From Stegostoma tigrinum (lineage: Eukaryota): a DNA stretch of 64,000 nucleotides. Position 1 is the first letter of the stretch. Each line of letters opens with the position of its first letter. Positions 20,355 through 64,000 of the stretch are shown here, piece by piece. The stretch spans positions 22,900,629 through 22,964,628 of the forward strand of contig NC_081391.1 in assembly GCF_030684315.1 (NCBI RefSeq). Direction: 5' to 3'. The position numbers and the translations under genes were made by a program. The notes under the pieces were generated by a model. It had not been told where the DNA came from. It ran no database searches and saw nothing but the letters and a program-made list of their open reading frames with translations.

Positions 20355-20553
20355 GAGATAACACAGCGTAGAGCTGAATGAACACAGCAGGCCTGGCAGC
20401 ATCAGAGGACCAGGAAAGCTAATGTTTTGGATTGAAAGCCCTGACCCGAAAGGTCAACTCTCCTGCCCCTCTGATGCTGCCCGGCCTGCTGTGTTTCTCC
20501 AGCTCCACACTGTGTTATCTCTGACTCCAGCATCATCAGTTGCTGCTATCTCT
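20355..20553. mobile_element. Old palindromic PLE mini-insertion
   Basis: Two diverged PLE tails in outward orientation, short end left and long end right; no clear TSD. Confidence 0.7.
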
Positions 20554-21111
20554 GACAGTCAGGGGTGGTTAGGATTGTTGATTCTAGTGGGAATATCCTG
20601 AAAGGATTCAGCAGATCACCGCTCGACTCCAACTATCCTGCTCGCACACTCTTGCTATTGGTCCATCTTCGTGGTACATTGCTCCCCGTAGCTTAGCAAT
20701 GACCTGATTTGATTTGAATCTTGGTGAATCAGCTTTTTTAGCCCCATTGCTGTTATTTTTACAAGTGATCTCCAAAACAGAGAACAACAACACATTTATT
20801 TTAACATCCTTTTGATGTTCCTTCTGTGCTCTGTCCAGAAATTTGGTATTGAATTCCTGGAGGATTCACAATTAAAATGGGGAATGGCTGATGGGGACTT
20901 GCCAAGTAACAGGCTCCTTTGCAATGCTGAAGTTTATTCATGTCGGAGAATAGGCTTCGGGCCCGCAGTGAGTTGGTATCGCTCACTCACTATCACAACC
21001 TCTGAACGCTGAGCCGATTTGACCACATCAGCCTGCCATTAGCTTTCAGTCCTTTCTGTCGGGTTGAAAGACTTACCCCTACCTCCCCACCTATACTCTC
21101 CTCTCTACCTA

Positions 21112-22626
21112 GAGATAATGGGAACTGCAGATGCTGGAGAATTCCAAGATAATAAAATGTGAGGCTGGATGAACACAGCAGGCCAAGCAGCATCTCAGGA
21201 GCACAAAAGCTGACGTTTCGGGCCTAGACCCTTCATCAGAGAGGGGGATGGGGTGAGGGAACTGGAATAAATAGGGAGAGAGGGGGAGGCGGACCGAAGA
21301 TGGAGAGTAAAGAAGATAGGTGGGGAGGTAGGGAGGGGATAGGTCAGTCCAGGGAAGACGGACAGGTCAAGGAGGTGGGATGAGGTTAGTAGGTAGCTGG
21401 GGGTGCGGCTTGGGGTGGGAGGAAGGGATGGGTGAGAGGAAGAACCGGTTAGGGAGGCAGAGACAGGTTGGACTGGTTTTGGGATGCAGTGGGTGGGGGG
21501 GAAGATCTGGGCTGGTTGTGTGGTGCAGTGGGGGGAGGGGACGAACTGGGCTGGTTTAGGGATGCAGTAGGGGAAGGGGAGATTTTGAAACTGGTGAAGT
21601 CCACATTGATACCATATGGCTGCAGGGTTCCCAGGCGGAATATGAGTTGCTGTTCCTGCACCCTTTGGGTAGCATCATTGTGGCACTGCAGGAGGCCCAT
21701 GATGGACATGTCATCTAGGGAATGGGAGGGGGAGTGGAAATGGTTTGCGACTGGGAGGTGCAGTTGTTTGTTATGTACACCTGTTTGTAATGCTACACCT
21801 GTCCCCACACCTCCTCCCTCACCCCCATCCCAGGCCCCAAGATGACATTCCACATTAAGCAGAGGTTCACCTGCACATCTGCCAATGTGGTATACTGCAT
21901 CCACTGTACCCGGTGCGGCTTCCTCTACATTGGGGAAACCAAGCGGAGGCTTGGGGACCGCTTTGCAGAACACCTCCGCTCAGTTCGCAACAAACAACTG
22001 CACCTCCCAGTCGCAAACCATTTCCACTCCCCCTCCCATTCTTTAGATGACATGTCCATCATGGGCCTCCTGCAGTGCCACAATGATGCCACCCAAAGGT
22101 TGCAGGAACAGCAACTCATATTCCGCCTGGGAACCCTGCAGCCATATGGTATCAATGTGGACTTCACCAGTTTCAAAATCTCCCCTTCCCCTACTGCATC
22201 CCTAAACCAGCCCAGTTCGTCCCCTCCCCCCACTGCACCACACAACCAGCCCAGCTCTTCCCCCCCCACCCACTGCATCCCAAAACCAGTCCAACCTGTC
22301 TCTGCCTCCCTAACCGGTTCTTCCTCTCACCCATCCCTTCCTCCCACCCCAAGCCGCACCCCCAGCTACCTACTAACCTCATCCCACCTCCTTGACCTGT
22401 CCGTCTTCCCTGGACTGACCTATCCCCTCCCTACCTCCCCACCTGTACTCTCTCCACCTATCTTCTTTACTCTCCATCTTCGGTCCGCCTCCCCCATCTC
22501 CCTATTTATTCCAGTTCCCTCTCCCCATCCCCCTCTCTGATGAAGGGTCTAGGCCCGAAACGTCAGCTTTTGTGCTCCTGAGATGCTGCTTGGCCTGCTG
22601 TGTTCATCCAGCCTCACATTTTATTA
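21112..22626. mobile_element. Young Neptune-type PLE: inverted minus copy plus a plus copy with the GIY-YIG end, nested in an older PLE tail
   Basis: VVYCIHCTRCGFLYIGETKRRL endonuclease motif; arms about 21150-21773 and 21990-22626 are near-perfect reverse complements; TSD tctcctctctaccta at 21097-21111 and 22627-22641. Confidence 0.93.
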
Positions 22627-23220
22627 TCTCCTCTCTACCTATCTTGTTTTCTCTCCATCTTCGGTCCGCCTCCCCCTCTCTCCCTATTTAGTCCAGTCCC
22701 CTCCCCCCATCCCCCTCTCTGATGAAGGGTCCAGGCCTGAAACGTCAGCTTTTGTGCTCCTGAGATGCTGCTTGGCCTGCTGTGTTCATCCAGCTCCACA
22801 CTTTGTGAGCTTGAAAGACTGTTCCCAGATTGACAGCGCCACCATGTGGTAGTGAGTCAGAGTGCTGGGAATATGGAAATAAGGACTAAGAGAGAGAAAA
22901 TGGGTTAGCTGTGCCAAATGTAACCCGTATCGTGTGATTATGTTGATGTGGAGGTGCCGGTGTTGATCTGGGGTGGACAAGGTCAGAATTCACACCTCAC
23001 CAGGTTACAGTCCATCAGGTTCATTTGGAAACACAAGCTTTCGGAGCCCTGCTCCTTAGTCGGGTGAGGTGGATTCACCTAATGAGGGAGCAGCACTCCG
23101 AAAGCTTAACAAACCTGTTGAACTATAACCTGGCATCATGTGACCTCTGACCTTGTGATAACGGGCCTAGGAGTATGTGGGAATGGGTGACTGTGCGAAA
23201 AGTGACCTGTATCATAACGG

Positions 23221-23430
23221 AGTTGATACAGTGTGGAGCTGGAGGAACACAGCAGGTCAGGCAGTATCAGGAAAGTCGGTGTTTCGGGTTGGGACCCTTC
23301 ATCAGGACATCATCTGTCCCGATACAAAATGCTGACTTTCCTGCTCCTGCTGCTGCCTGACCTGCTGTGTTCCTTCAGCTCCACACTGTATTGACTCTGA
23401 GTTTGAGCAATAGCATTTTTTGCTATCTCG
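23221..23430. mobile_element. Old palindromic PLE mini-insertion
   Basis: Outward-facing tails; degenerate 12-bp TSD gt(a/g)tcataac(g/a)g at 23209-23220 and 23431-23442. Confidence 0.7.
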
Positions 23431-23704
23431 GTGTCATAACAGGACCAGGTGTGTTGTGGGTATGAAGCATGGAAGGATAGAATCAAGCTCTGAAGTTATT
23501 GAAGCTTGATGCTGAGCCCCAGAAGTTGCAGGGTCCCCAAGGTGAAGCTTGGCGTCATTTTTGCAGACAAAGTGTATGAGCAATACTGTTGCCCAGTCTG
23601 TGTTTTGTCTCCTCAATGTAGAGGAGACCGGACTGTGAGCAGGTAATACAGTAGACTGAATTGAATGGCATACAGGTAAATCACTGCTTCACCTGGAAGA
23701 AATT

Positions 23705-23927
23705 TGTAGGGATTGGAGCAAGGTCAGCTGGATGGACTTTATAGAATATGAGTTCCTTGACTGGGGCTGTTAACCCCGTCCAATCAGGGAGTCCCGACTG
23801 ACAGATATAAACAGGAGGGTCAAGGGTTCTGCTCACTCTGAAGGAGCTGAATGTGCGTCAAGGACTCTCCACATGTAAATAAAGGGTGACCTGGTGACTG
23901 GATACCAGGCTCTGTGACTTTATTTCA
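23705..23927 (+). mobile_element. Short solo-LTR-like element
   Basis: Starts TG and ends CA, with ordered CCAAT, TATAAA and AATAAA. Partial second copy at about 25127-25713. No TSD seen. Confidence 0.5.
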
Positions 23928-24447
23928 GTATCAGTTTCCAGTTGCCTGTTGTTTCAGCACACCACCAAGTTCCCACATCAATGCTTCTGTCTCAGGCCTG
24001 CAGCAGTGCTCTGGTGAGGCTCCGGACAAGCCTGAAGAACAACATCTCATTTTCCACTTGGGGATCCACTCAGCCTTTCAGCCATGTGGACTCCTAGCCC
24101 ATTTTCACATGATATTGGATACATCCAGCACAGCTCGATTCTCGTTCTTAGCTCTTGTTATCACTTATTCAGCTTTTCTCCTGCTATCCATTATCTCCTC
24201 CTTTATGTCACTCTTTCACATCTCTCCATCTCCATGTATCCATTTATCTGTCCCCTTCCCCTCCCACCATCTCCAATGTCGGCTTCAGCATAAATATCAG
24301 TTTTACCTAATTACTCGCAGCTCTGATGAAGAATCTCTGGAATAAAAGCATTAACTCTACTGTCTTCCCACAGATGCTGCCAGACCTGCTGAATTTCTCC
24401 AGTGTTTTCTGTTTCATTTCAGCAACTTCCAGCAACCGCAGTTATTT

Positions 24448-24659
24448 CAGAGACAGTAGGAACTGCAGATGCTGGAGAATCTGAGATAACAAGGTGTACA
24501 GCTGGGTGAACACAGCAGGCCAAGCAGCATCAGAGGAGCAGGAAGGTTGATGTTTCGGGTTTTCTGAAGAAGGGTCTAGGCCCAAAATGTCAGCTTTCCT
24601 GCCCCTCTGATGCTGCTTGGCCTGCTGTGTTTATCCAGCTCTACACCTTGTTATCTCTT
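24448..24659. mobile_element. Palindromic PLE mini-insertion inside a third-family PLE tail
   Basis: Long tail left, short tail right; aaccgcagttattt (24434-24447) versus aaccatagttattt (24660-24673). Confidence 0.8.
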
Positions 24660-25276
24660 AACCATAGTTATTTGTTTTATTTTACATGAATGTTGAGTTC
24701 TTCCAAAGAAGAATAATGCTGGACTTGAAACGTTAACTCTGTTTCTCTCTCCACAGATGCTGCCAGACCTGCTGAGGTTCTCCAGCACTTTTTATTTTTA
24801 CTTTCTGTTGGAAATGCTCAGCCTCCCCATGGGCTTCAGGCAATATGTGAGACATTATGTGCTGAGTTTTCTCCAGCATTTTCTGGATAAGGGAGCTGTA
24901 CAACTCACTGCCTGAATATTTTCTTACTACACCAAAGGCGATATATAAATCCAAGCTGTTATTACTGCACTCTCCTTAGTACCTTGATACGAGATACTCA
25001 GCAGATATGATGGTATAAATGTTGAGCACACTTCCTATTTCTACTTCTTTTTTTAAAGTTCATTCCTAGGATGTGAGTGTCACTGGCATAAAATTCCCAT
25101 CCCTAATTGTACAGAGTCAACAACAACTGGATGGACTTTATAGAATATGAGTTCCCTGATTGGGGCTGTTAACCCGGTCCAATCAGGGAGCCCTGACTGA
25201 CAGATATAAACAGGAGTGTCAAGGGTTCTGCTCAGTCTGAGGGAGCTGGATATGCATCAAGGACTCTCCGCACGTA

Positions 25277-25658
25277 GAACATAGAACATAGAACATAGAA
25301 CATAGAACATAGAACATAGAACAGTGAACAGTGAACAGTGAACAGTACAGCACAGAACAGGCCCTTCAGCCCACAATGTTGTGCCGACCATTGATCCTCA
25401 AGTATGCACCCTGAAATTTCTGTGACCATATGCATGTCCAGCAGTCTCTTAAATGACCCCAATGAACTTGCTTCCACAACTGCTGCTGGCAATGCATTCC
25501 ATGCTCTCACAACTCTCTGTGTAAAGAACCCGCCCCTGACATCCCCTCTATACTTTCCTCCAACCAGCTTAAAACTATGACCCCTCGTATTAGCCATTTC
25601 TGCCCTGGGAAATAGTCTCTGGCTATCAACTCTATCTATGCCTCTCATTATCTTGTAT
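25277..25658 (-). mobile_element. Young CR1 3' fragment with (TTCTATG)n tail and 5-bp TSD
   Basis: Open minus ORF MRGIDRVD...FFTQRVVRAWNALP; (catagaa)n and (gaacagt)n runs; acgta at 25272-25276 and 25659-25663. Confidence 0.92.
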
Positions 25659-25904
25659 ACGTAAATAAAGGGTGACCGGATGACAGGATACCAGGCTCTG
25701 TGACTTTATTTCAGTATCAGTTTCTAGTTGCCTGTTGTTTCAGCACACCACCAAGTTCCCACATCAATGCTTCTGTCTGGGGCCTGCAGCAGTGCTCTGG
25801 TGAGGCTCCGGACAAGCCTGAACCAACTTACCCTGCTGTCATAGCGATGTGGCTTTTCTGAATGGAGGATTTAAATTTGGTGGCATGGTCAGGAATTAGG
25901 TGGC

Positions 25905-26240
25905 CTAGTGGCTCAGTGGTTAGCAATGCTGCCTCACAGCATCAGAAACTGTGTTTTGATTCCATCCTTGGGTGACTGTGGTATGCAGTTTGCACATTCT
26001 CCCTGTGTCTGTGGGGTTTTCCTCTAGTATCGTGGTGCCCTCCCACTGTCCAAAGATGTGCAGGTTAGGGTGAATTGGCCATGCTAAATTACCCAAATGT
26101 CCAGGGACGTGCAGGCTATGTGGGTTAGCCATGGGAAATGAGGGTTACAGAGAGATGGTATGGGGTGGCTCTGGGTGTGATGGTTTTCAGGGGGTTGGTG
26201 CTGACTCGAGGAGTTGAATGGCCTGCTTCCACACTATAAG
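25905..26240 (+). mobile_element. HE1/V-SINE-like SINE
   Basis: gtggctcagtggttagca head, central V-like domain and CR1-like tail. Confidence 0.75.
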
Positions 26241-26388
26241 GATGAAGGGTCTAGGCCTGAAATGTCAGCCTTCCTGCTTCTTAGATGCTGCTTGGCCTGC
26301 TGTGTTCATCCAGCTCTACACCTTGTTATCTCCAAACTTGTGTCTTGTTTTTGATTATTGCTAGCACTCTCCCCTCTGATTCAAAATG

Positions 26389-26486
26389 GTGTTTTGGGCC
26401 TGGCGTTTTAAGGACGGGGGCCGTGTTTTGGGCCTGGCGTTTTAAGGACGGGGGCTGTGTTTTGGGCCTGGCGTTTTAAGGACGGG
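26389..26486 (+). repeat. 34-bp tandem repeat, about 2.9 copies
   Basis: gtgttttgggcctggcgttttaaggacggggg(cc/ct) starting at 26389, 26423 and 26457. Confidence 0.95.
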
Positions 26487-34199: not shown

Positions 34200-35860
34200 T
34201 TGGCTCCATATTTATATCTATAGTTCCTGCACTACATATGAGCAAACAGTTGCACTCAAAGGCAAGCTGCAGACATATGCTGGGCTCACTGAAGGGTGGT
34301 AGAATTGACCCTTCTGCATCCATACGTGTACAGGCAATCCATGATGTAATTCCCCATTTACCCTATTTCTAGCCAAGGCTGGCTTAGCACAATGTGAATT
34401 AGCCAAATAGTCATGTGAGTTGTTGCAATCAGTTCAAAATGAGTTTCTCCTCATGCACTGAAGGATTCCTGCATGTTTGTCAAGACCTTACAAGTTGAGA
34501 ACAGTGGCATGTCTGCATGTTCTTAACATTGCCAGTTTATTTACCAATGTGCCAGTTGAAGAAGCCATTGTCATTTGCACTATATCACTACTTCATAGTA
34601 ATCCAGATGTACCACAGGTCTCTGAATCTGTGGTCTTCAGACTTATATACTTGGCAACTCGTGCAATTGAGTTCAGCTCCGATTGCATGGCAAATGCCCA
34701 ATATTGGCATTGCCATGGAAACTCCTTTGTGTCCAGCCCTTGCTGACATCTTTATTAGTTACCATGAGAAGTGCATCTTTGCCAGAAAGACCATGTAACT
34801 TTTATCCTTTGTACACTGAAATGTAAATGACCGTTTGCAATATTTGAATCCACAGCTGCAAGGAATTTCTTTGTACAATCTAATAAACTCCATTCTGTGC
34901 TCAAATTTACCATTGCAGCATTCAGTTCAGCTGTCTCTTCAGTGTTTTGGTGGAAAAGTCAGAAAATGGGTTCTCAATGACCATCTACCAAAAGCCAACA
35001 GTCGAGGTCGACATATGTGCTGGGATCAGTCCGATCCCATGTGCTGAAAAATCATTCTTATTGGTGACCTTGTGAATAGTACCATTTGCTCACCAGGTAG
35101 TTTTGACATCGAGAATGTGCACATCAAAACTACCCTGTGTCAGAGATAATGGGAACTGCAGATGCTGGAGAATCAAAGATAATAAAATGTGAGGCTGGAT
35201 GAACACAGCAGGCCAAGCAGCATCTCAGGAGCACAAAAGCTGACGTTTCGGGCCTAGACCCTTCATCTCTGATGAAGGGTCTAGGCCCGAAACGTCAGCT
35301 TTTGTGCTCCTGAGATGCTGCTTGGCCTGCTGTGTTCATCCAGCCTCACATTTTATTACCCTGTGTCATGTTGGAGATACCCTGATCAAATCATCACTTG
35401 TATGTTGCGAAAACTCAAGAAATGGCCTGCAGACTCAGTTCAGACTCTGAGCAGTGTCAAGTCTACCTCATTACCCTGCAGGGGAAAAGTGTCTGAAAAC
35501 TTTGAACAGATGAAGCTAACTGTCTCATGCTCCTATTATGTAGTAAACCATGAGTGGTTTTCTCTGTGATCAAAATGCTGCAGTCAAGCCAAAATGTTTT
35601 GCCTACCACACCAATGAATAAAAGTATGCGTTTGTATCAGTGTGATGCCAGCTATGTAGGCTGTAAGCCCCAATGACTGCTGGGCTCTTTCAAAGAACAC
35701 ATCTGTTGATCATCACAGTGGACATCTGAGTGTGCTCAACCAGGCCTCAAGATTATATCCATCATTTGATGTGGTTATGCTAGGAAATAATTTATTAAAT
35801 AATCCAGATTGTGCCATGAGATACACTGGAAACCAATTTAAGATCATCACTCAGGTTGAC
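34200..35860 (+). mobile_element. Highly degraded Poseidon/Penelope-type PLE (RT and GIY-YIG remnants)
   Basis: NIASLFTNVPVEEAI and IAMETPLCPALADIFISYHE resemble the RT motifs SLFTNVP and GxAMGSPLxPxLANIF; CDASYVG near 35640. Frameshifted throughout. Confidence 0.7.
35143..35356. mobile_element. Young palindromic PLE mini-insertion with a 12-bp TSD
   Basis: 88-bp inverted arms 35180-35267 and 35271-35358 around a 3-nt loop; taccctgtgtca at 35131-35142 and 35357-35368. Confidence 0.95.
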
Positions 35861-35896
35861 AGTGAGAGTGCCAGAAGGAACAGAGACATGGAAGAT

Positions 35897-38011
35897 AATA
35901 AAATGTGAGGCTGGATGAACACAGCAGGCCAAGCAGCATCTCAGTAGCACAAAAGCTGACGTTTCGGGCCTAGACCCTTCATCAGAGAGGGGGATGGGGG
36001 GAGGGAACTGGAATAAATAGGGAGAGAGGGGGAGGCGGACCGAAGATGGAGAGTAAAGAAGATAGGTGGAGAGAGTGTAGGTGGGGAGATAGGGAGGGGA
36101 TAGGTCAGTCCAGGGAAGACAGACAGGTCAAGGAGGTGGGATGAGGTTAGTAGGTAGCTGGGGGTGCGGCTTGGGGTGGGAGGAAGGGATGGGTGAGAGG
36201 AAGAACCGGTTAGGGAGGCAGAGATAGGCTTCTTCCTGTCCCGCAGGCCCGACCAGGCCCCCTCCACCGACACTCTCATCCGCCTAGCTGAACTCGTCCT
36301 CACACTCAACAACTTCTCTTTTGACTCCTCCCACTTCCTACAGACTAAGGGGGTGGCCATGGGCACCCGCATGGGCCCCAGCTATGCCTGCCTCTTTGTA
36401 GGTTACGTGGAACAGTCCCTCTTCCGCACCTACACAGGCCCCAAACCCCACCTCTTCCTCCGGTACATTGATGACTGTATCGGCGCCGCCTCTTGCTCCC
36501 CAGAGGAGCTCGACCAGTTCATCCACTTCACCAACACCTTCCACCCCAACCTTCAGTTCACCTGGGCCATCTCCAGCACATCCCTCACCTTCCTGGACCT
36601 CTCAGTCTCCATCTCAGGCAACCAGCTTGTAACTGATGTCCATTTCAAGCCCACCGACTCCCACAGCTACCTAGAATACACCTCCTCCCACCCACCCTCC
36701 TGCAAAAATTCCATCCCCTATTCCCAATTCCTCCGCCTCCGCCGCATCTGCTCCCACGATAAGACATTCCACTCCCGCACATCCCAGATGTCCAAGTTAT
36801 TTAAGGACCGCAACTTCCCCCCCACAGTGATCGAGAACGCCCTTGACCGCGTCTCCCGCATTTCCCGCGACACATCCCTCACACCCCCCCCCCGCCACAA
36901 CCGCCCCAAGAGGATCCCCCTCGTTCTCACACACCACCCTACCAACCTCCGGATACAACGCATTATCCTCCGACACTTCCGCCATTTACAATCCGACCCC
37001 ACCACCCAAGACATTTTTCCATCCCCTCCCCTGTCTGCTTTCCGGAGAGACCACTCTCTCCGTGACTCCCTTGTTCGCTCCACACTGCCCTCCAACCCCA
37101 CCACACCCGGCACCTTCCCCTGCAACCGCAGGAAGTGCTACACTTGTCCCCACACCTCCTCCCTCACCCCCATCCCAGGCCCCAAGATGACATTCCACAT
37201 TAAGCAGAGGTTCACCTGCATATCTGCCAATGTGGTATACTGCATCCACTGTACCCGGTGCGGCTTCCTCTACATTGGGGAAACCAAGCGGAGGCTTGGG
37301 GACCGCTTTGCAGAACACCTCCGCTCAGTTCGCAACAAACAACTGCACCTCCCAGTTGCAAACCATTTCCACTCCCCCTCCCATTCTCTTGATGACATGT
37401 CCATCATGGGCCTCCTGCACTGCCACAATGATGCCACCCGAAGGTTGCAGGAACAGCAACTCATATTCCGCCTGGGAACCCTGCAGCCATATGGTATCAA
37501 TGTGGACTTCACCAGTTTCAAAATCTCCCCTTCCCCCACTGCATCCCTAAACCAGCCCAGTTCATCCCCTCCCCCCACTGCACCACACAACCAGCCCAGC
37601 TCTTCCCCCCCACCCACTGCATCCCAAAACCAGTCCAACCTGTCTCTGCCTCCCTAACCGGTTCTTCCTCTCACCCATCCCTTCCTCCCACCCCAAGCCG
37701 CACCCCCATCTACCTACTAACCTCATCCCACCTCCTTGACCTGTCCGTCTTCCCTGGACTGACCTATCCCCTCCTTACCTCCTCACCTATACTCTCCTCC
37801 CCACCTATCTTCTTTTCTCTCCATCTTCGGTCCGCCCCCCCCCTCTCTCCCTATTTATTCCAGAACCCTCCCCCCATCCCCCTCTCTGATGAAGGGTCTA
37901 GGCCCGAAACGTCAGCTTTTGTGCTCCTGAGATGCTGCTTGGCCTGCTGTGTTCATCCAGCCTCACATTTTATTATCTTGGATTCTCCAGCATCTGCAGT
38001 TCCCATTATCT
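35897..38011 (+). mobile_element. Young 5'-truncated Neptune-type PLE with an inverted tail on the left and a 16-bp TSD
   Basis: Minus tail 35897 to about 36225, then plus body; cagagacatggaagat at 35881-35896 and 38012-38027. Confidence 0.95.
36230..37657 (+). CDS. PLE reverse transcriptase C-terminal half plus GIY-YIG endonuclease (5'-truncated, uninterrupted frame)
   Basis: GVAMGTRMGPSYACLFVG, RYIDD, FLDL, Cys linker CNRRKCYTC and VVYCIHCTRCGFLYIGET...RFAEH. Frame is open from the junction to the stop. Confidence 0.88.
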   Translation, partial: FFLSRRPDQAPSTDTLIRLAELVLTLNNFSFDSSHFLQTKGVAMGTRMGPSYACLFVGYVEQSLFRTYTGPKPHLFLRYIDDCIGAASCSPEELDQFIHFTNTFHPNLQFTWAISSTSLTFLDLSVSISGNQLVTDVHFKPTDSHSYLEYTSSHPPSCKNSIPYSQFLRLRRICSHDKTFHSRTSQMSKLFKDRNFPPTVIENALDRVSRISRDTSLTPPPRHNRPKRIPLVLTHHPTNLRIQRIILRHFRHLQSDPTTQDIFPSPPLSAFRRDHSLRDSLVRSTLPSNPTTPGTFPCNRRKCYTCPHTSSLTPIPGPKMTFHIKQRFTCISANVVYCIHCTRCGFLYIGETKRRLGDRFAEHLRSVRNKQLHLPVANHFHSPSHSLDDMSIMGLLHCHNDATRRLQEQQLIFRLGTLQPYGINVDFTSFKISPSPTASLNQPSSSPPPTAPHNQPSSSPPPTASQNQSNLSLPP

Positions 38012-39737
38012 CAGAGACATGGAAGATCCTGCTTTGTGTTGATAAAAAGAATTTGGACGTAGATATTTTCTTAATCAACCTGTTCATCTCTGCAGCAAAT
38101 GGGACTAGAACGCAGGCCTCCTGGCTCAGAGGGAGGGACACAATCACTGTATTGTGAGAGTGCTACAAATTTGTACATGTGTTCTACTCCTTTAAAAAAG
38201 GTGTGTTTTGGAGACAGCCATCGGCTGCTGCATCTCCGTGGCAACATCCTGACCAATTAGACCAGGCAGGTTGATTCTGAGAATCAGGATTGACAGGTAA
38301 CCATTCTCGCTGCATCCCTACGATGAAACAGCCAACTGACACTCTTCTCATGCTGTGTGAAGTGGGTGTTCCTCTTTTGTTTAAGTCTGTTTCTTGCATC
38401 CTAGATCTGACGAGTTCAAGATGAAAAGCTTCGTCTTTTTGGTCTCCTTTCAGCAATGTTTAAGTACCATACTACCGAGCAATTATTCACATTTGGGATT
38501 CCAAAAGGCATTCAATAAGGTACCACATGTAAGGCTAGTTAATCAGATAAGAGCCCATTGGGTATTGGAGGCAGTACAATAGCATGCAAAGAGCATTGGC
38601 TAACTAATAGAAACAGAGATTGGGATAAGGGGGGCTATTTTCAGGAAGGCGACCTGTTATGAATGGAGTGCCACAGTGATCAGTGATGGGTTCACAATTA
38701 TTTACAATATATTAATGACTTGGATGAGTGAAGTTAATGTACTGTAGTCAAATTTGCAGATGGTACGGAAATTGATTCCCTTCGAAGTCATATACCATCC
38801 TGGCTCGACACTACATCACCATCCCTTCACAATCACTGGGTCCCTTGCTGTCAGCACTGGCTGTCACTGCCCCATGAAGACGGCATTGATTCAAGGTAGC
38901 TCACAGGTACTTCCTCAAGGGTAATTAGGGATGGTCAATAAATGCTGGCCTTGCTAATTATACTCACATTTCAGGCCTCGGAAGACTTGGCTGGGAGGCT
39001 GCCCGAGAATACAAAGGTGCAGCAGAAAATGGCTCTTGTAGAAAAGCGGTCATGCCCCTACCTCTGGGTCAGGAGGCTGAGTTCAAGTCCTACTTTCTTC
39101 AGGAATGTGTTGTAGCATACCTGCACAGGTTCATTTTAAGGTTGAGGAGAAGCCACCGCAGTCTCAGCAAATTGTAGGGCTTTTCCTCTCATTAGAGGAA
39201 TAACAGGTGGCAAGTTTATCCTGTGGGTCACACCTCAGGCAAGCAGCAAGGTTGAGAATAATGGACCTTCATGGTCACCTCAGCCAGTGTAGGAATTGAA
39301 CCTATACTGTTGATGTCACTCTGCATTGCAAACTGAGATTTTACTTTATATTAAAACATTCATGAAGAGTTAATACATTCATTCCATTTGAACATTCTAT
39401 TCAAAAGTTTCTATAACTAACTATTAACTGAATTATATCCTCTAACATCTAAATCCTTTAATTCTCTCCGGCACACTCCCATTTACCTGGTACAAAGCGA
39501 TCCTTGCAGTTTCTTTATTCCCCATCTTTAAAACAATATAAAAATCCATCTCTAGTAATTTTGAATCAGAAACTCCACCAGTTAATCAGGCACAGTAACA
39601 CCAGATCCCCTTAAATCGATCCTCTGGTTTTCCCCATCAGTTTCATCTCCGCTGTTTGTCATCAGTATCCCCTTCTCCTTCCCCTTGCATTGGATGCTCC
39701 GATAGGTTGCTGTTTCCAAAGGATGGACAAATGACGG

Positions 39738-45780: not shown

Positions 45781-47368
45781 GTGAGCATGGAAGCTCTGAA
45801 CTTGTACGTGTCACTTGCAGAAAACTTCTTGATCTGAGTTGGCATCTGAATCTCAGCCCTCTGGGGCATGACATAGCATTTCTTCTAAAATTTGTGCCTA
45901 GGCTTGGGGATTGTGCCAAATTCCCTCTAGGAAGAAGGTTAATGTACCGACTCCCCTTTAGGAACTGGCCAGCCAGCACTTGGCAGTTCAGGGCTGTGAA
46001 AGCCCACTGTTACTGTCTATAAGCATAGCTGTCACAATATGGCAGGCTAATACTTTGGGGGCAAGCAAGGTCTGAACAGTGCCTGTGTAAGAGCCTCAAT
46101 TAGGTGTCTTGTCTGTTAAGTCTCTGGATTTGCTGGCTGATGGACTGTATTGCTTTCTGTACACAGAAATGGACCCTAGAGGCCCACCCAGTTGATGCTG
46201 ACCATAATCCCAAACTAAACCAGTCTGACCTGCTTGCTCCTAGCCCACTTCCCTCAACCTCTTTACTTAGACACTTTAAGGGTGGGTGGGGAGGAAGATG
46301 ATTTGTAAGGTGGGGCTAGGCTTCCCATCAGAACCAAGACAGTAACACTAGAGCTAGGCTGGTCAGGGTGCTTACTTTTATTTTTCTGGTAACTTGGTAT
46401 CCTGCTTGCATGTTGCCACTGCTCACTGTTCTGGCCCAGTCAGCACAGAAACTGGGCTGTACTTAAACTCAGCACACCATTGTTGCAGTTTCTGCTCCCT
46501 CTTTTAAAAATCTTAGGCTTAGCCCACTAGGCACTGTTGAAGCTTTGAAGGTGTTCCTCTGCAGGATTGTCTTGTATGTTCCCATGCAATTTTACAGACT
46601 GTCCCTGATCCTTTTTGCAAGCTGCACTTCAGTTTTTGACTGTCAATTGACAGTCCAATCTGAAAACAAATGTTAGACAGCACCTGTGAAGAGAACACAA
46701 GCTACCACTAGTATAGATGATTCTTCAATACTTAACTGTTTTGTTGTGTGGCTCCCCTTGCAATGTTATATACAGTCTGTCTCTTACCTAGTAACTTGTT
46801 TACTGTTAAACATTTGTATTCTTGGATGTTATCTGGTGGCTAGTCTCTCAATGACCTCTACTCAACTGCTGGTGTTTCAGTTGAATTTTTGAAGCAGCTA
46901 CTGCTCAGACTTGGAATCTGAGGACTTGAACAATCAAAAGGGATGCCTAGAGAAATTTGGCTCTGAGTATCTAGAGCAAGATGGGAATTGGTATGGATCT
47001 TTGAATTACACAAACTGAAGATGACAGGTGTGTCTATGATCAGTTATTAGCATTTGAAACTCTGGTAATGAAGACAACTCTAGAAAAATCTTCAGGAAAC
47101 TGTCTGGCAATAATAAACTAAAGGTGTTCCTCAAACTTGAGTTGCACTAACTAGCCAGTCCCTTTTTATGGGAAGAATGTTGAAACTGTGAAACTAAAGA
47201 AATAATACAAATTACTATAACTTGAAGCTGTTAACCTTCTGAATTCACTATGCTGCTGTGTAACAGAGCTGACTTCAAACAGCTGTTTCCCCCTCCATTG
47301 TTACCAGACCTGTTGAGCTTTTCCAGCATTTCTAAATATTAGGAACAAAACATTCCCTGATGGGGCAT

Positions 47369-47582
47369 GAGATAATGGGAACTGCAGATCCTAGAGAGTC
47401 CAATATAAGTGTGGAGCTGGATGAACAGCAGGCCAAGCAGCATCTTAGGAGCACAAAAGCTGACATTTCAGGCCTCAGCCCTTCACTAGACAAGACTGAA
47501 GGGTCTAGACCTGAAATGGCAACTTTTGTGCTCCTAGTTGCTGCTTGGCCTGCTGTTCATCCAGCTCCACACACTTTATCTT
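47369..47582. mobile_element. Palindromic PLE mini-insertion in galectin intron 3
   Basis: Long tail left, short tail right; perfect TSD ctgatggggcat at 47357-47368 and 47583-47594. Confidence 0.88.
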
Positions 47583-49041
47583 CTGATGGGGCATTGTCAT
47601 GTCCCTCTTTTTTTTTTGCAATGCGATCTGCAGTCTTCACCTTGAACTATAGTGAAGCCTGAACCAGCCCAGAATATTACTGATTAACTAAAGTACTTTG
47701 TTCCCTTTAAAGTGTAGAGAGGGGTACATTTGTGATCCAGTCAGTTTCTAGACTGGCACATGACAACTTTTTAGCTTTCTCCTTGTTTGGATTGGGAAAA
47801 CACCTCCCTGAATATGGGTCCCGTTGGCTATAACAGCATTTACTGCTGTTTCCTGGTTGTCGTCACCTTGACCCCTAGTCCATGCAGTAAAAATCTCATC
47901 TCTGGGGTGTTTCTGAAGGAAATGTTTCCAAGTCCAGATCATGTGGCTTGCAGGTGGTGTTCCCATGTATCTGCTGACCTCTTCCTTTTAGATGGAAGTC
48001 ATAGATTTGGAAAGTGTTGTCTGAGGAGCCTTGGTGAATTTGAGTAACTGTTAATTGTTGCTACTCCACTAGGTGGCAGCCTCTGCATTACTTAATGACA
48101 AACCTTGTGATGGAGTATAGTTGCAGAGATAGTAGGAACTGCTGCTTTTTTCTTCAGAAGGGTCTAGGCCCCAAAAATGTTGTCAGCCTTCTTGCCCCTC
48201 TGCTGCTTGGCCTGCTGTGTTCATCTCTTTCCCCCCCCCGCCACCACCACACCTTGATACTGCCAATTCTCCAAATTGTGCTTAAAGTTGAGGAACAGTG
48301 TTCTACTGTCAGTACAGGGGTCATCCCTAGCTGAGTCACTCATTGGGTCAACTTGCATGTGTTGGCTAATTCCTTCCTTCTCTCTGAACAAGAGACTGGA
48401 TTCTGTCTGTGCAGGCTCAGGTTCCTGCCCCACCAGCACTTGGTACTCTAGGACTCAACCTCCCTCAGGACTTCTAACCTGAGTCTCAACTGAGGTCAGG
48501 ACACTTCCTCAGCTCTACAAGTACTAAAGCACAATAGTAATGCAGAGCTCAAACATATACAGTACTGCAATCTTGGGTTGCAAAATTCCCATAGCGTTTC
48601 AGCTAAGTCTCTTTTAAAATATACTTGTTTACTAGTCTTCCCCCCCCCCCCCCGTCTTCCTTTTTGCCTCCCCCCTCCCCCCCCACCAAGAATGTTTTCA
48701 ACATCTGAAAACCTCAGTCGCTTAAGGTGTCCAGACATTTAACCATGTTTTTAATCAGTATCAAATATTAACACTTATGAAATAGAGCCTTTTTGTGGTT
48801 AAATGCACTAAATATCAGTGACTTGCAGTCAATTTGTCTGTCTTCAAATGTCATTGGGTTCAGTGAACATGGCAACATGACAAGCAAGTCCTTGAGTTGA
48901 AGTGGAAAGGAACATGCTAGCACAGGTCATGAATCTGTACTTCACACTTGGAATTTAAAATTACAGGTGGGTTTGAGATGAACTTACAGAATACAACTTT
49001 CTGTCTTTCCCTTTCTGTCTAACCTCTTTAATTTTCAACAG

Positions 49042-52855: not shown

Positions 52856-54636
52856 TGATAACAAGGTGTACAGCTGGATGAACACAGCAGGCCAAGCAGT
52901 GTCAAAGGAGCAGGAAGGCTGATGCTTCGGGCCTAGACACTTCTTCATGAAATGGGGGAGGGGAAGAGGGTTCTGAAATAAACAGGGAGAGAGGGAGACG
53001 GATAAAAGATGGGTAGACGTGAAGATAGGTGGAGAGGAGACAGACAGGTCAAAGAGGCGGGGATGGAACCAGTAAAGGTGAGTGTAGTTGGGGAGGTAGG
53101 GAGGGGATGGGTCAGTCCAAGGAGGAGGGACAGGTCAAGGGGGTGGGATGAGGTTAGTAAGTAGGGGGTGGGCTTGAGGTGGGAGGAGAGGATAGGTGAG
53201 AGGAAGGGCAGGTTGGGGTGGCGGGGATGAGCTGGGCTAGTTTTGCGATATGGTAGGGGGAGGGGATATTTTTGAAGCTTGTGAAATCCACATTGATACC
53301 ATTGGGCTGCAGGGTTCCCAAGCGGAATATGAGTTGTTCCTGCAACCTTCGGGTGGCATTGTTGTGGCACTGCGGGAGGCCCAGGATGGACATGTCGTCT
53401 AGGAATGGGAGGGGAAGTTGAAATGGTTCATGACTGGGAGGTGCAGTTGTTTATTGCGAACCGAGCAGAGGTGTTCTGCAAAGCAGTCCCCAAGCCTCCA
53501 CTTGGTTTCCCTGATGTAGAGGAGGCCACAATGGGACCAGTGGAAGCAGTATACCACATTGGTGGATGTGCAGGTGCACATCTGCTTGATGTGGAAAGTC
53601 TTCTTGGGGCCTGGGATGGGGGTGAGGGAGGAGGTGTGGGGGCGAGGTGTAGCACTTCCTGTGGTTGCAGGGAAAAGTGCCGGGTGTGGTGGGGATGGAG
53701 GGGTGTGTGGAGCAGACAAGGGAGTCACGGAGAGAGTGGTCCCTTTGGGAAGCAGGTAAGAGTGGAGAGGGGAAAATGTCTTTGGTAGTGGGGTTGGATT
53801 GCAGGTGGCGGAAGTGTCGGAAGATGATGCGTTGGATCTGGAGGTTGGTGAGGGCGAGGGGGATTCTGTTTTGGTTGTTATTGTGGGGAGGAGGTGTGAG
53901 GGATGAGTTGCAAGAAATGTGGGAGACACGGTCTAGGGCATTCTCGAGATGTCCTGGAGTGGAATGCCTCATCCTGGGAGCAGATGTGGCAGAGGCGAAG
54001 GAATTGGGGATGGCATTTTTGCAGGAAGGTGGGTGGGAGGAGGTGTATTCTAGGTAGCTGTGGGAGTTGGTGGTCTTGAAATGGATATCTGTTTCTAGGT
54101 GGTTGCCAGAGATGGAGACAGAGAGGTCCAGGAAGGAGAGAGAGGTATTAGAGATGGCCCAGGTGAACTTAAGGTTGGGGTGGAAGGTGTTGGTGAAGTG
54201 GATGAACTGTTCAAGCTCCTCGTGGAAGCATGAGGTGGCACTGATACAGTCATTGATGTAACGGAGGAAGAGGTGGGGTTTAGGGCCAGCGTAGGTACGG
54301 AAGAGGGATTGTTCCACGTAACCTACAAAGGGGCAGGCATAGCTTGGGCCCATGTGGGATGAGGCATTCCACTCCCATACATCTCAGATGTCCTCGTTTT
54401 TCAACAACCACAGCTTCCCCCCCTCAATGGTTGAGAATGCCCTCGACCGTGTCTCCTGCATTTCCCGCAACTCATCCCTCACCCCCTCCCCGCAATAACA
54501 GCCAAAACAGAATCCCCCTTGTCCTCATGTACCACCCCACCAACCTCCAGATCCAACGCATCAACCTCCAACACTTACGCCATCTGCAATCCGAGCCCAC
54601 CACCCAAGACATTTTTCCCTCCCCACCCTTACTTGT
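52856..54636 (-). mobile_element. Older Neptune-type PLE (minus to about 54353) with an inverted plus segment
   Basis: Minus ORFs MGPSYACPFVG...RYIND and NVVYCFHWSHCGLLYIRET; frameshifted, catalytic YIDD changed to YIND. Confidence 0.9.
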
Positions 54637-57026: not shown

Positions 57027-58234
57027 ATTTTAACCTCACTGCGAAGCCTCTTCCAGGGATGCCTAACCTGAAGAAGTTACCCTCCTCCCTCCGGACCAAC
57101 CTCAGGGAATCTCTCTCCCATTGCAACTCTCTTGTACTCTCCATCTTCGGTCCGCCTCCCCCTCTCTCCCTATTTATTCCAGTTCCCTCCCCCCATCCCC
57201 CTCTCTGATGAAGGGTCTAGGCCCGAAACGTCAGCTTTTGTGCTCCTGAGATGCTGCTTGGCCTGCTGTGTTCATCCAGCCTCACATTTTATTATCTTGG
57301 AATCTCCAGCATCTGCAGTTCCCATTATCTCTGATACTATTTTAACCTCACTGCGAAGCCTCTTCCAGGGATGCCTAACCTGAAGAAGTTACCCTCCTCC
57401 CTCCGGACCAACCTCAGGGAATCTCTCTCCCATTGCAACTCTCTTGTACTCTCCATCTTCGGTCCGCCTCCCCCTCTCTCCCTATTTATTCCAGTTCCCT
57501 CCCCCCATCCCCCTCTCTGATGAAGGGTCTAGGCCCGAAACGTCAGCTTTTGTGCTCCTGAGATGCTGCTTGGCCTGCTGTGTTCATCCAGCCTCACATT
57601 TTATTATCTTGGAATCTCCAGCATCTGCAGTTCCCATTATCTCTGATACTATTTTAACCTCACTGCGAAGCCTCTTCCAGGGATGCCTAACCTGAAGAAG
57701 TTACCCTCCTCCCTCCGGACCAACCTCAGGGAATCTCTCTCCCATTGCAACTCTCTTGTACTCTCCATCTTCGGTCCGCCTCCCCCTCTCTCCCTATTTA
57801 TTCCAGTTCCCTCCCCCCATCCCCCTCTCTGATGAAGGGTCTAGGCCCGAAACGTCAGCTTTTGTGCTCCTGAGATGCTGCTTGGCCTGCTGTGTTCATC
57901 CAGCCTCACATTTTATTATCTTGGAATCTCCAGCATCTGCAGTTCCCATTATCTCTGATACTATTTTAACCTCACTGCGAAGCCTCTTCCAGGGATGCCT
58001 AACCTGAAGAAGTTACCCTCCTCCCTCCGGACCAACCTCAGGGAATCTCTCTCCCATTGCAACTCTCTTGTACTCTCCATCTTCGGTCCGCCTCCCCCTC
58101 TCTCCCTATTTATTCCAGTTCCCTCCCCCCATCCCCCTCTCTGATGAAGGGTCTAGGCCCGAAACGTCAGCTTTTGTGCTCCTGAGATGCTGCTTGGCCT
58201 GCTGTGTTCATCCAGCCTCACATTTTATTATCTT
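57027..58234 (+). repeat. 312-bp tandem array (about 3.9 copies) of an internally deleted PLE derivative, one hammerhead per unit
   Basis: Identical 83-aa ORFs start at 57132, 57444 and 57756, and the same frame opens again at 58068; units look identical by eye. Confidence 0.96.
57203..57234 (+). ncRNA. Minimal type I hammerhead ribozyme motif (cores also start at 57517, 57829 and 58141, and occur in other young PLE tails)
   Basis: CUGAUGA, extra A, stem II GGGU/GCCC with CUAG loop, GAAA, C, GUC; predicted cleavage after 57232. Stem III is reduced to the palindrome ACGU and stem I is only about 2 bp. Confidence 0.7.
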
Positions 58235-60019: not shown

Positions 60020-60592
60020 ACATAGAACATAGAACATTACAGCGCAGTACAGGCCCTTCGGCCCTCGACCTGTGAAACCAATCTGAAGCCCATCTAACCT
60101 ACACTATTCCATTATCATCTATATGTTTATTCAATGACCATTTAAATCCCCTTAAACTTGGTGAGTCTACTACTGTTGCAGGCAGGGCATCCCACGCCCT
60201 TACTACTCTCTTAGTAAAGAACCTATCTCTGACATCTGTCCTATATCTATCACCCCTCAATTTAAAGCTATGTCCCCTCATGCTAGCCATCACCACAAGA
60301 GAAAAAAGGATCTCACTGTCCACCCTATCTAATCCTTTGATCATCTGGTATGTCTCTATTAAGCCATTTCTTAACCTTCTTCTCTCTAACGAAAACAGAC
60401 TCAAGTCCCTCAGCCTTTCCTCATAAGACCTTCCCTCCAGACCAGGCACTATTCTGGTAAATCTCCTCTGCACCCTTTCCAATGCTTCCATGTCCTTCTT
60501 ATAATGCGGCGACCAGAACTGTACGCAATACTCCAAGTGTGGCTGCACCAGGGTTTTGCACAGCTGCATCATGACCTCATGGCTCCGAAACT
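60020..60592 (-). mobile_element. CR1-type LINE 3' fragment with (TTCTATG)n tail
   Basis: Minus ORF LVQPHLEYCVQFWSPHYKKDMEALERVQRRFTR...; the same tail family occurs at about 29059-29175 in ATP5MF intron 2. Confidence 0.92.
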
Positions 60593-61717
60593 CACATAAC
60601 GGAGGCCTTGCACCTTATAGAGGAGATTGGTAGGGGCAAACAGAGAAAATCATTTCATTTGTGAATAGTTGAAAGCTTCACAAGGACATGATTACAAGGC
60701 AGCCAATTATCAATCGAGTCAGAAATTCTGAAGAAAATTCTTCACTCTGGCAGTGAGCGAGATGTGGAACTCATTCCCATAGGGTCAAGGTCAGCTGTAT
60801 AGATGACGAATTTGGATCAACATGAGGGAGAATGGAATCAGACTTTTTCAGATGGGGTCAGCTGAAGTGGAGGATGCAAAAAGGCTTGTGGGGAGCTTAA
60901 ACACCAGCATAGAGCAATTGGGCTGAATGGCCTGCAAATGGTCCTCTTTTAAGTTGAGTTTAGAAACTTGGATTCCATTTTTGAAGCCTCTTTCTGAAGT
61001 CAGGCAACAGATTTGCGAAACAGGGCAGTAAGAACAAGACTGCATATCTATAGCATCTTTCACAGTTTCAGGATGCCCTAATGCAGTAGGGTTAATGTGT
61101 AGTCTTTTGTTGATGTTCAGATACTTGCATGGGGACAATCTGATGGCCAGTCTATTAATTCTGGTCAGGGCTGTCAGGGAGTGGGGAATAGAGCAGGAAG
61201 GGCGCGGGAATCTTCAGATTTGAGCCAGTCTATCCAGAGATTCTTGTCAAGAAGCGCACAGAGGACAGTGGGAATATGGAAATCTCTCCCTATGAAAGCT
61301 TGGATCTGAGATTGAATCCCAATTGGAAATTTTAATGCAGAGATTTTAGCTATTCATTAGGGTCAAAATCATTATAATCCCGGAGGACCACTCTCTCATC
61401 AGAGAGAAACGCCAGGTGGGGGTTTAACCCGAGGGTCACCACACCTCAGATGAGGGGAGAGGTTGTTTGGATCCATGTAGTGGCATTACTACCTTCCATT
61501 AGAGAGAGAGATGGATAAAGGTGTTGAGAATTCCACAAGTGAGACAGGTAGATGGTACGCAGATCAGCGACGATCTAGTAAAATGGTGGCTGAACTGGTT
61601 CAAGGGGCCAATTGTCTGTCCCTAAGTTCTGCTACTGTCATCTATTGAAGGCTTGCTTGAGAACACACAAAGATAAGATGATGGGTACCTCAGGAGTAAC
61701 TCATTCTGGTGAATGGC

Positions 61718-62821
61718 TCATTGAGTCAAGTTAGACACTGTTGTTCGATTTCTCCCCTGGTACTCCAACTGGAGTGACTTCGCTGTGTTCGTTTGGGCAG
61801 CTGATCTCTTGGGCCCTTGACTGTCCATTTGGCCCCTCTTAAAGGTGACCCGCTCAGTTGATGTTCTGCTGTGGTGTGCCATATACTCCTTGTAGTTCTT
61901 GGTGAGTAACATGTAGAGGAATGGGTTGATACAGCTGTTACTGTAGGTCAGGCAGGTCACAAAGAAGTTGATGTACATCTGTGCCAGTGGTGTCATACTC
62001 AGAGCTTCTTGCTTATAAAGTTTTGTCAACTGCCAGACCCAAAATGGCAGAAAGCAGGCCCAGTACAACAAGATGATGCTAAAAATCATGTACAAGACCT
62101 TCTGCTTTAGAGTACGATTTCTATTGTCCGAAACCATTCTCCCCGAGAGCCAGTAAGCTAGTGCCAACCGGATGTACAGGTATCCAATTACAATGCCTGG
62201 AGATAAAATGCTGGTATTGAATAAAATGGTGAGATACGTTTTGTAGGCTTCAGGATTCCAAGTTGGGAAGCAAATCCGCTTTGTTGACCCTGTAGGGTTG
62301 ACGGTCTCTCGTAAATGGATCATAATCATCATCGGCAAGGTCAGGAGGCAGGATAATGACCAAATGGTGGCAGTGATTATCCTTCGGCACGTTCTGGTAG
62401 CCCGGCTGGCCAGGGGTGAGGTCACAGCCCTGTATCGTTCGACGCTCATGGCTGTGAGGATGAAAATGCTGGCGTGCATGGTCAGGAGGTCCAGGCTGAG
62501 GAGGAACCTGCAGCCGATCTCCCCAAAGTACCAGTCTTTGGCAAAATATGTGCACACCACGAAAGGGATGGTGAGCAAGTATAGGAGGTCGGCCAGTGCC
62601 AGGTTGGCGATGTAAATGTACATGGATCCAGCAGACTTGATTGATCGGTTGGCGATCACCAACGTGTAGATATTGCCCAGCATGCCAAAGATACACATGA
62701 TGGTTAGGATCACCCCGAGGAGTGTTGTAATCAGGACCTCATTCACGTTACCTTCATCTGGAAGCGAGGAATTGCTGGTCAAGTTTCCTTTTGTGAGTTG
62801 GCCATTGTCAACTCTGTCCAT
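61718..62821 (-). CDS. UTS2R: Urotensin-II receptor-family class A GPCR, 367 aa, single coding exon
   Basis: Seven hydrophobic segments; NLALADLLY, LDLLTMHASIFILTAMSVERY, CFLPFWVWQL and TCLTYSNSCINPFLY match UTS2R-family motifs. Which uts2r paralog it is cannot be determined. Confidence 0.92.
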   Translation of the reverse strand: MDRVDNGQLTKGNLTSNSSLPDEGNVNEVLITTLLGVILTIMCIFGMLGNIYTLVIANRSIKSAGSMYIYIANLALADLLYLLTIPFVVCTYFAKDWYFGEIGCRFLLSLDLLTMHASIFILTAMSVERYRAVTSPLASRATRTCRRIITATIWSLSCLLTLPMMIMIHLRETVNPTGSTKRICFPTWNPEAYKTYLTILFNTSILSPGIVIGYLYIRLALAYWLSGRMVSDNRNRTLKQKVLYMIFSIILLYWACFLPFWVWQLTKLYKQEALSMTPLAQMYINFFVTCLTYSNSCINPFLYMLLTKNYKEYMAHHSRTSTERVTFKRGQMDSQGPKRSAAQTNTAKSLQLEYQGRNRTTVSNLTQ

Positions 62822-63141
62822 TTTGCCCCTCTGTTTGCTGCCAGAGTTTTTAAGTTGTCTTCCTCTTCCTGCTATCCCTTTTCAGGCCACCTGGAAAAGA
62901 ACCCACAATATATTTCATTTCAATTAGTTCAATGTTTCATTGGTTATCTTTTCTTATGTGTATTTTTTTTTGTTTATTCTTTCATGAGATGTTGAATACT
63001 AGGCCAGCATTTATTGCCTATTCCCTTATTGTCCAGCGGGCATTAAAGGTCAACCCCATTGCTGTTGGCCTGGAGTCACATGTAGGCCTGCCCAGGAAAG
63101 GACAGCAGATTTCCTTCCTTAAGGAACATGAAATGAGTGAG

Positions 63142-63362
63142 AGAGAGATAATAGAAACTGCAGGTGCTGGAGAATCCGAGATAACAAGGTATGGAGCTGG
63201 ATGAACACAGCAGGCCAAGCAGCTTCTTAGGAGCAGGAAAGCTGACGCTTCAGGCCTAGACCCTTCAATTTCTGATGAAGGCTCTAGGCCCAAAATGTCA
63301 GCCTTCCTGTTCCTAAGATGCTGCTTGGCCTGCTGTGTTCATCCAACTCCGCACTTTGTTAT
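63142..63362. mobile_element. Palindromic PLE mini-insertion inside an old SINE
   Basis: Long tail left, short tail right; catgaaatgagtgag (63127-63141) versus cataaaatgaatgag (63363-63377). Confidence 0.82.
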
Positions 63363-64000
63363 CATAAAATGAATGAGGTGGGTTTTAAGTGCCACTCGAT
63401 GGGAAGCATGCGGTCGCAATTTAATCAGCATTTTATTCCAGATTTTATCAAGTTCAAATCCCACCATCCACTGGAAGCCATGTCCCCAGAGAGTTATTCA
63501 GAAGTACCATGACTTTGTCCACCCCAGTCCAACTCCAGCACCTCCATATTAAGCCCACAGCATTCATCTGAGGTTCGGGATTACTATAATAAAAGCAAAA
63601 TTCTGCAGGCGCTGGAAATCTGAAACAAAAATAGAGAAACTCTGCAGGTCTGGCAGCCTCTGTGGAGAGAAGAGGAGTCATACTGAGGTTGAAATGTTAT
63701 CTGTTTTTCTCTCTTTCGCTAAGTTTCTCCAGTGTTCTCTGTGCTTGCTCTGTCCAGTGGCATGGCCACTGGTTGCTACCTCCCCACAATAATTCCACTT
63801 CCTTCTCTGGATGCATGTTCACAGCTTTCTGAAGCAAAGAACAGTCCCGGCCTTGACAATGTTTCTGTGCCCAGTTGACCTAGGTGTGTCGTGCCCCTCT
63901 CGAGATTTACTCCCTCTGTCTCATGTGCCTGACCCTTCTCAGGCCACATGCCTGATGTGAACCCTCTCAGACTGGTAATTGTGAAAAGTAGCTTGTGAAG

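Follow-up and report, generated by a model that had tools for sequence, protein, structure and literature searches.

Why would a retroelement insert as two inverted copies, one with a long outer end and the other with a short one? The question is raised by a 64,000-nucleotide stretch of the Stegostoma tigrinum genome (contig NC_081391.1, positions 22,900,629 to 22,964,628; the whole stretch is called the window), animal DNA of 46% GC in which self-comparison uncovers many short pieces of one repeat family. An earlier note on this DNA had picked out eight insertions of that family, and these are the eight that we tested. The long-end/short-end pattern is real and above chance. In fact, long versus short is whether the Penelope tail is there or missing, an asymmetry that has already been described.

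The element and its two ends

The family is best approached through one young copy and its parts:

36229-38012, + strand: young 5'-truncated element copy, delimited by self-comparison
36245..37657, + strand: 5'-truncated open reading frame (ORF) coding for a reverse transcriptase (RT) core (YIDD), then a CX4CXXC linker, then a GIY-YIG endonuclease that has CCHH residues
37886..37913, + strand: minimal hammerhead motif whose core begins at -27, with a predicted cut following 37913
37979..38012, + strand: tail, about 34 nt between two ATTATCT motifs, which is the entire long/short difference

We count positions from the predicted hammerhead cut after GAAACGTC, which is window position 37913 in the young copy, and write S for a short end and L for a long end. 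The ATTATCT motifs, where the earlier note had rightly placed the termini, end at +65 and +98. A hammerhead descriptor matches 14 times in the window and 0-1 times in each of 20 shuffles; Rfam returns no hammerhead family match at E 0.1 in the window, and helix I of the young family's motif has only 2 bp. Folding around the end borders reveals no special structure (z +1.07, -0.19, -0.26), so that by this test no stem-loop marks the priming sites.

The YIDD and VVY..YIG motifs share a single frame, as RT followed by a GIY-YIG endonuclease at the C-terminus. The truncated ORF alone has no Pfam match and matches a group I intron endonuclease weakly (E 0.041); it has 324 longer homologs (best identity 56%), many carrying PF00078 (RVT_1) and some PF01541 (GIY-YIG). 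The cysteines of the linker between RT and endonuclease (C293/C298/C301 of P0001) are invariant in nine aligned proteins. By inspection against the definition in PMC8557442, the CCHH motif is present, with two cysteines between GIY and YIG. That paper defines the Neptune/Nematis clades by a CX2-5CxxC linker, which the Penelope/Poseidon clade lacks. By these definitions the element is predicted to be endonuclease-positive Penelope-like, of Neptune/Nematis type, and its linker sets it apart from the Penelope/Poseidon clade. Its terminal repeats, tandem or inverted, its 30-40-bp tail and its variable target-site duplications (TSDs) are also those of endonuclease-positive Penelope-like elements. 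The bias towards microsatellites that is a reported tendency of Neptune did not appear, none of seven TSDs being a simple microsatellite. A conserved 31-nt core had no matches in viral, prokaryote-genome or metagenome contigs.

The eight insertions are as follows, together with an older copy that holds one of them:

20356..20552: I1, old head-to-head pair, S left, L right; no TSD
21112..22629: I2, young pair, L left (arm -579..+99/+100), S right (arm -777..+65); TSD of 15 bp, 0 mismatches, 21097-21111 / 22627-22641
21075..22806, + strand: older solo short-ended copy interrupted by I2 (pieces 21075-21111 and 22642-22806); TSD of 10 bp, 21064-21073 / 22811-22820
23221..23429: I3, old pair, S left, L right; TSD of 10 bp, 1 mismatch (or 12 bp, 2 mismatches), 23209-23218 / 23431-23440
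24450..24656: I4, pair, L left, S right, within the tail region of a family-B copy (24318-24443); TSD of 14 bp, 2 mismatches, 24434-24447 / 24660-24673
35143..35358: I5, young hairpin, L left (to +102), S right (to +62); perfect TSD of 12 bp, 35131-35142 / 35357-35368
35893..38012: I6, young pair, S left (arm -274..+66), L right (arm -1684..+99); TSD of 16 bp, 0 mismatches, 35881-35896 / 38012-38027
47369..47584: I7, pair, L left, S right; perfect TSD of 12 bp, 47357-47368 / 47583-47594
63145..63364: I8, pair, L left, S right; TSD of 15 bp, 2 mismatches, 63127-63141 / 63363-63377

All eight are head-to-head with outward ends, S ends lying at +62..+66 and L ends at +99..+102. Every pair is heterotypic, as the earlier note had claimed with coordinates that proved correct within 1-4 bases (8/8; by independent choice 0.5^8, p = 0.004). 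Nine solo copies split into five S and four L-like ends, which makes p(L) near 0.5 a fair null. No L/L or S/S pair of this family occurs among its matches listed in the window; of the 104 inverted repeats, 25 were listed. The TSDs noted earlier in seven insertions hold up: 10-16 bp long and perfect to two mismatches, they surround both arms, and random flanks equalled their scores in 0-2 of 300 trials each. Each such pair is thus one event. A reference-free measure, from inverted-repeat end to TSD, likewise gives a one-sided offset of 32-38 nt in these seven.

The central junctions differ in all eight, again as first reported; some overlap by a few bases and some hold filler. A single master hairpin that spreads in the manner of a miniature inverted-repeat transposable element (MITE) is therefore rejected. 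Ends unequal by 32-38 nt, TSDs of 10-16 bp and centres that are all different also rule out a MITE or non-autonomous DNA transposon. In I5, a perfect inverted repeat of 88 nt is interrupted by a spacer of 3 nt. Among the six short hairpins, alignments begin at -32 to -10 in 11 of 12 arms; the twelfth starts at +3 (blastn) or -15 (nhmmer). Hairpins of this kind resemble MITEs and microRNA precursors, and mis-annotation is possible. In the window, we rejected six sub-threshold Rfam microRNA matches, four of them on hairpins, as fold-back look-alikes.

Two of the eight insertion targets are older Penelope-like copies: I2 and I4 lie in older terminal repeats (21097-21111 and 24434-24447), which hints at self-targeting. 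TSDs were found in two of five solo S copies and none of four solo L copies, numbers too few for ranking the two sites. Three further copies belong here:

3434..3661, - strand: young solo short-ended copy; TSD of 14 bp, 3418-3431 / 3673-3686; 11-nt filler at the 5' junction
48126-48225: damaged pair, L left end, right arm shorter than the S class
3750-3918: damaged pair, L left end, right arm shorter than the S class

Is the pattern particular to this family? Two other Penelope-like families in the window have the same one-sided extension:

14951..15162: pair of the related family B, L left, S right; weak TSD (13 bp, 2 mismatches, offset 37, no null for it), missed in a second TSD analysis
22936..23156: pair of the distinct family C, with its own hammerhead motif, L left, S right; weak TSD (6-8 bp)

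With them, 10 of 10 pairs are heterotypic (p = 0.001). We also sampled metagenomes, taking 80 of 465 related loci found by alignment of the ORF and eight homologs. These contain 60 inverted repeats, five with a hammerhead pattern; one lies at a contig edge and four were tested. Three loci (L009, L016, L025) have perfect 13-16-bp TSDs (null 0/40 each), one-sided offsets of 42, 50 and 59 nt and short ends about 55-75 nt beyond the cut. Their tails are related in sequence, so we count them as about one further family and not as three. L070 and two small matches in L016, in or near local repeats, were set aside. At 900-1306 of L010 lies an inverted pair of sequence derived from transfer RNA (ARAGORN tRNA-Thr 974-1047, minus strand); its 13-bp duplication is perfect, 46 nt extend it on one side, and no hammerhead pattern was found in it. 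It looks like a short interspersed element (SINE)-like element inserted in the long/short manner.

Junctions, arms and priming

How could one event produce such a pair? The enzyme, probably a dimer, would make a staggered cut. Target-primed reverse transcription would then start from both 3' ends, at about +65 from one of them and at about +100 from the other, with, we infer, one site per nick. Each start would be fixed, to within a few bases, by 1-5 nt of pairing. Repair would join the two complementary DNAs (cDNAs), which may derive from one element RNA or from two, at their 5'-truncated ends, and so leave two arms head to head, their tails pointing outward, within a single TSD; in the short hairpins, both cDNAs would stop at the upstream edge of the hammerhead. 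We consider it probable that both nicks of one staggered cut prime in this way, one per tail border, and that repair joins the truncated cDNAs. This reading draws on the heterotypic pairs, the enclosing TSDs, the differing centres, the other families and loci, the junction microhomology and a drop in contig depth described below, and on work in vitro with the protein of PAc, a Poseidon element of Anolis carolinensis (PMC11167929). In fact, the two stereotyped priming positions proposed in the earlier note have a counterpart both in the two end classes here and in the two start sites of that study.

In the three young insertions I2, I5 and I6, the target shares 3, 2 and 5 nt with the S ends and 1, 3 and 1 nt with the L ends. 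The total of 15 nt exceeds the 4-5 expected over six young junctions (P = 4e-4 to 3e-3), and the few-base scatter of each end fits a register chosen by short pairing. The earlier note had taken microhomology-guided priming as known; PMC11167929, which reports priming without homology, does not support this part.

The arms themselves bear on where the cDNAs come from. Those of I6 differ at 13/336 positions and by 2 indels; its short arm is nearer to the I2 arms (6/321 and 8/335 differences), and the states that distinguish the I6 arms recur in other copies. These sequences suggest that at least one insertion, I6, joins two template haplotypes, barring later conversion. By contrast, the I5 arms are identical (0/87 differences), the I2 arms are close (8/625), the I7 arms carry a common private 2-nt deletion and the I3 arms have common private states. 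The I7 deletion and the I5 identity argue against a general two-template rule; the idea that arms always share a template is also unsupported, the partner arm ranking 1-6 of 19 in the short shared region and I6 being discordant.

Could one arm then be a copy of the other? A cDNA might fold back or switch strand, and the endonuclease might cut or recognise the element's terminal repeat at the borders of the tail, which would then stay on one side. The private states of I7 and I3 are what fold-back copying predicts. Endonuclease-mediated resolution has been suggested as the most likely origin of the tail (PMC8557442) and self-priming proposed for inverted junctions (PMC3846280); moreover, both ends here follow ATTATCT, and PMC11167929 reports a 5'-ATT-3' cut preference and cites earlier work by which the tail is needed for endonuclease recognition. 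Thus the I7 deletion and the shared ATTATCT fit a fold-back, but I6 does not: its arms differ by states that recur in other copies, so that one was not copied from the other. Start sites that coincide with the tail borders in vitro (PMC11167929) and microhomology at both junctions speak against it as well, and we regard this resolution of a DNA intermediate as rather unlikely.

Twin priming of L1, in which both target nicks prime and an inversion forms inside one TSD, has a variant that would explain strictness directly. If both nicks primed the same terminal-repeat copy of one RNA 34 nt apart, steric exclusion would force an L/S pair. The matching arms of I5 and I2 and the common I7 deletion are in its favour. 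However, the two arms of I6 derive from different haplotypes, unless their differences are put down to subsequent gene conversion or to a tandem RNA that was chimeric, and in a four-arm test of I2 and I6 not one site groups the arms by insertion. A single RNA with two primers therefore seems quite improbable to us.

Sequence beyond the ends

If the two ends are priming sites, what lies downstream of them in the template? One feature of the window runs past both:

57027..58234, + strand: tandem array of 3.9 x 312 bp, whose units span -105..+207 and carry one hammerhead motif each; the array ends at the short position

It contains four hammerhead motifs at a 312-bp period and jumps from +207 back to -105 at a CT-rich near-match. 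We compared one array unit with contigs of four public runs, X1, X3 and X15 from organism A and X6 from organism C; X1 and X3 are two samples of one study and X15 belongs to a separate one. Contigs of X3 and X15 also have similar go-back joints from the unit's end, with different filler, which means that such units have formed repeatedly. Element sequence goes on from +99 to at least +207 in the array and in contigs of two organisms; the +105..+207 part is covered in all four runs, and several contigs enter it from the tail. The run-on contigs and the array place both ends inside a longer RNA. The arms of pairs, too, read through the ribozyme cut site. All of this, with the uncleaved substrate of PMC11167929, agrees with the uncleaved template running past the ends that the earlier note had proposed.

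Summed depth in X1, which is not copy number, reaches 26 M in the core, falls to about 11 M in the tail and comes to 0.8 M beyond +105. Summed contig depth thus drops about 13-fold past +105, while contigs extend into +105..+207. Among the ends listed, loose ends cluster at +65 (at least 615 contigs in X1, at least 623 in X3 and 13 in X15) and at -28 (at least 766 in X1, at least 721 in X3, 193 in X6 and 18 in X15). At the latter position (window 57516), which is the upstream edge of the hammerhead core and not the cut site, 5' ends cluster strongly in all four runs; 5' ends near -30 could reflect where transcripts begin, where they are spliced, or a structural block.

Opposite-strand joints make up 10 of the 15 joint rows listed, and all ten connect +48..+68 to +97..+105 (window 57592-57612 to 57641-57649). 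Among the joints listed they occur in at least 190 contigs of X1 and at least 206 of X3, and in none of X6 or X15, each contig having about single-copy depth. They are likeliest to be tail-to-tail short-to-long junctions, produced by tandem duplication or re-insertion of whole long/short units or by priming from two nicks whose strands stayed together. None of the 15 rows is short-short or long-long. As a hint, and not as a count, these joints point to heterotypic pairing beyond the window.

A bolder version of two-nick priming can be put forward tentatively, as a possibility that we still hold to be doubtful. Each tail border would be an obligate priming site that cannot stand in for the other, and an asymmetric dimer would allot the two of them to the two nicks, also where the RNAs are different (as I6 suggests), with the short site first; the same intermediate could, by re-targeting or with its strands left unseparated, also give rise to pairs that join short to long and face inward (about 200 contigs per run). 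If true, "tail at one end" becomes a strict mechanistic rule across Penelope-like clades.

Several points weigh against priming from both nicks. Start sites of PAc are seemingly alike on both strands, so that strict pairing is not predicted by itself, PAc initiation is non-homologous where we see microhomology at only six junctions, and PAc belongs to the Poseidon clade and is not Neptune-type (all PMC11167929); the tail has been called "optional" (PMC3846280). I1 has no TSD, random flanks equalling its best score in 73/300 trials. The fourth metagenome locus, L003, has no significant TSD (best candidate net offset -7, null 23/40) and could be a short/short pair. Finally, head-to-head centre joints are absent among the 15 joint rows listed.

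Some of these points also bear on whether the strictness is an effect of sampling or selection, the ends being chosen independently and like pairs lost or missed. The sample is small and was chosen by a reader, L003 is ambiguous, the joint rows listed are 15 of 141, and the literature says "optionally" and "often". Yet no like pair is found among the family matches listed, at the probabilities given above for eight and ten pairs. Selection is countered by the position of the tail at the outer edge, without effect on the stability of the central hairpin, and by I5, which retains its perfect inverted repeat. We find this account highly improbable. Short two-armed copies with clean TSDs are very numerous in this genome, which makes pairing strictness, border microhomology and template sharing between arms countable; such counts would tell priming at two nicks apart from a fold-back resolved by the endonuclease.

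Neighbouring features and known systems

Other features of the window are listed here:

61718-62881, - strand: uninterrupted frame of a rhodopsin-family G-protein-coupled receptor (PF00001, E 5e-47); I8 lies about 260 bp upstream
52857-54635: older long copy with internal inversion in the ORF region; no significant TSD
951-1923: older long copy with internal inversion in the ORF region; no tail found at left
7494-7826, 18758-18929 and 25908-26243: three copies of a repeat that we take to be SINE-like; a solo copy at 26241 adjoins one of them
13027-13107 and 13750-13831: near-perfect inverted repeat of 82 bp (98.8%) that encloses about 640 bp; not related to the family under study and perhaps derived recently from a DNA transposon
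12524-12937, 25232-25705 and 60099-60614: frames that by eye we presume to be RT fragments of CR1/L2-type long interspersed elements

How does the long/short pair compare with what is known? In L1 twin priming the two arms represent separate stretches of a single RNA, without overlap, and priming is at poly(A), whereas here the terminal sequence is common to both arms, and these begin at two internal sites whose positions are fixed.

Penelope-like RTs are the sister group of telomerase (PMC8557442), and the Penelope tail has been seen often at only one end of an insertion (PMC8557442), as a 31-bp tail optional on one inverted repeat, with TSDs of 8-10 bp (PMC3846280), and as a 34-37-bp repeat in D. 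virilis Penelope (PMC2377424). Inverted pLTRs (pseudo-long terminal repeats) and short 3' extensions are also mentioned in PMC8969392; the available part of PMC6431247 added nothing to the comparison. With the tail at one end on record in PMC8557442 and PMC3846280, the asymmetry, of which the earlier note knew no description, is not new. The complex endonuclease-positive Penelope-like insertions of PMC8557442, PMC3846280 and PMC2377424 have, like ours, a 5'-truncated inverted copy by the 5' end, tails that point outward, an extra 30-40 bp at one end, a TSD of about 10 bp or more and a hammerhead in the terminal repeat. Here, by contrast, arms are often only about 90-130 nt long, both borders have one 7-nt motif, and pairs are heterotypic in 8/8 where the papers say "often" or "optionally". 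No counted rule of "never L/L or S/S" was found in the literature searched, key older reviews lying outside that search and possibly stating it.

The PAc protein nicks and extends both DNA strands in vitro, begins reverse transcription inside the RNA, downstream of the hammerhead, at two sites, one on either border of the tail, and has uncleaved RNA as its dominant substrate, hammerhead cleavage being unnecessary; a dimer is predicted (PMC11167929). Template, starts and strands are thus the same as we propose here. The systems differ in that PAc lacks the CX2-5CxxC linker that our element has and in that initiation is reported as non-homologous to the cut DNA there, against 1-5 nt of microhomology here; per-insertion pairing of the sites is not reported in the part of the paper available. 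No in vitro study of a Neptune-type element was found in the literature searched.

Minimal hammerheads of metazoan Penelope-like elements, including pairs 100-700 bp apart on opposite strands (PMC4209133), share with ours the CUGANGA / GAAA core, a bulged base before helix II, the lack of a stable helix III, a palindromic junction and a preponderance of solo truncated copies; the motif here, a predicted one, differs in its shorter helix I. The array resembles the non-LTR retrozymes of a preprint (bioRxiv 10.64898/2026.07.22.740005) in its tandem repetition (here of 312-bp units), its hammerhead in each unit and its origin from a Penelope-like terminal repeat; it has two or more units in succession that carry a complete hammerhead motif, as their definition asks, the preprint's folding-energy filter not having been applied as such. 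The likeness is limited to the array, known here from DNA, and excludes the inverted pairs. Set beside these systems, what still deserves interest is the apparent strictness of the pairing, the microhomology, the two-haplotype insertion and the opposite-strand joints, all in a new Neptune-type family.

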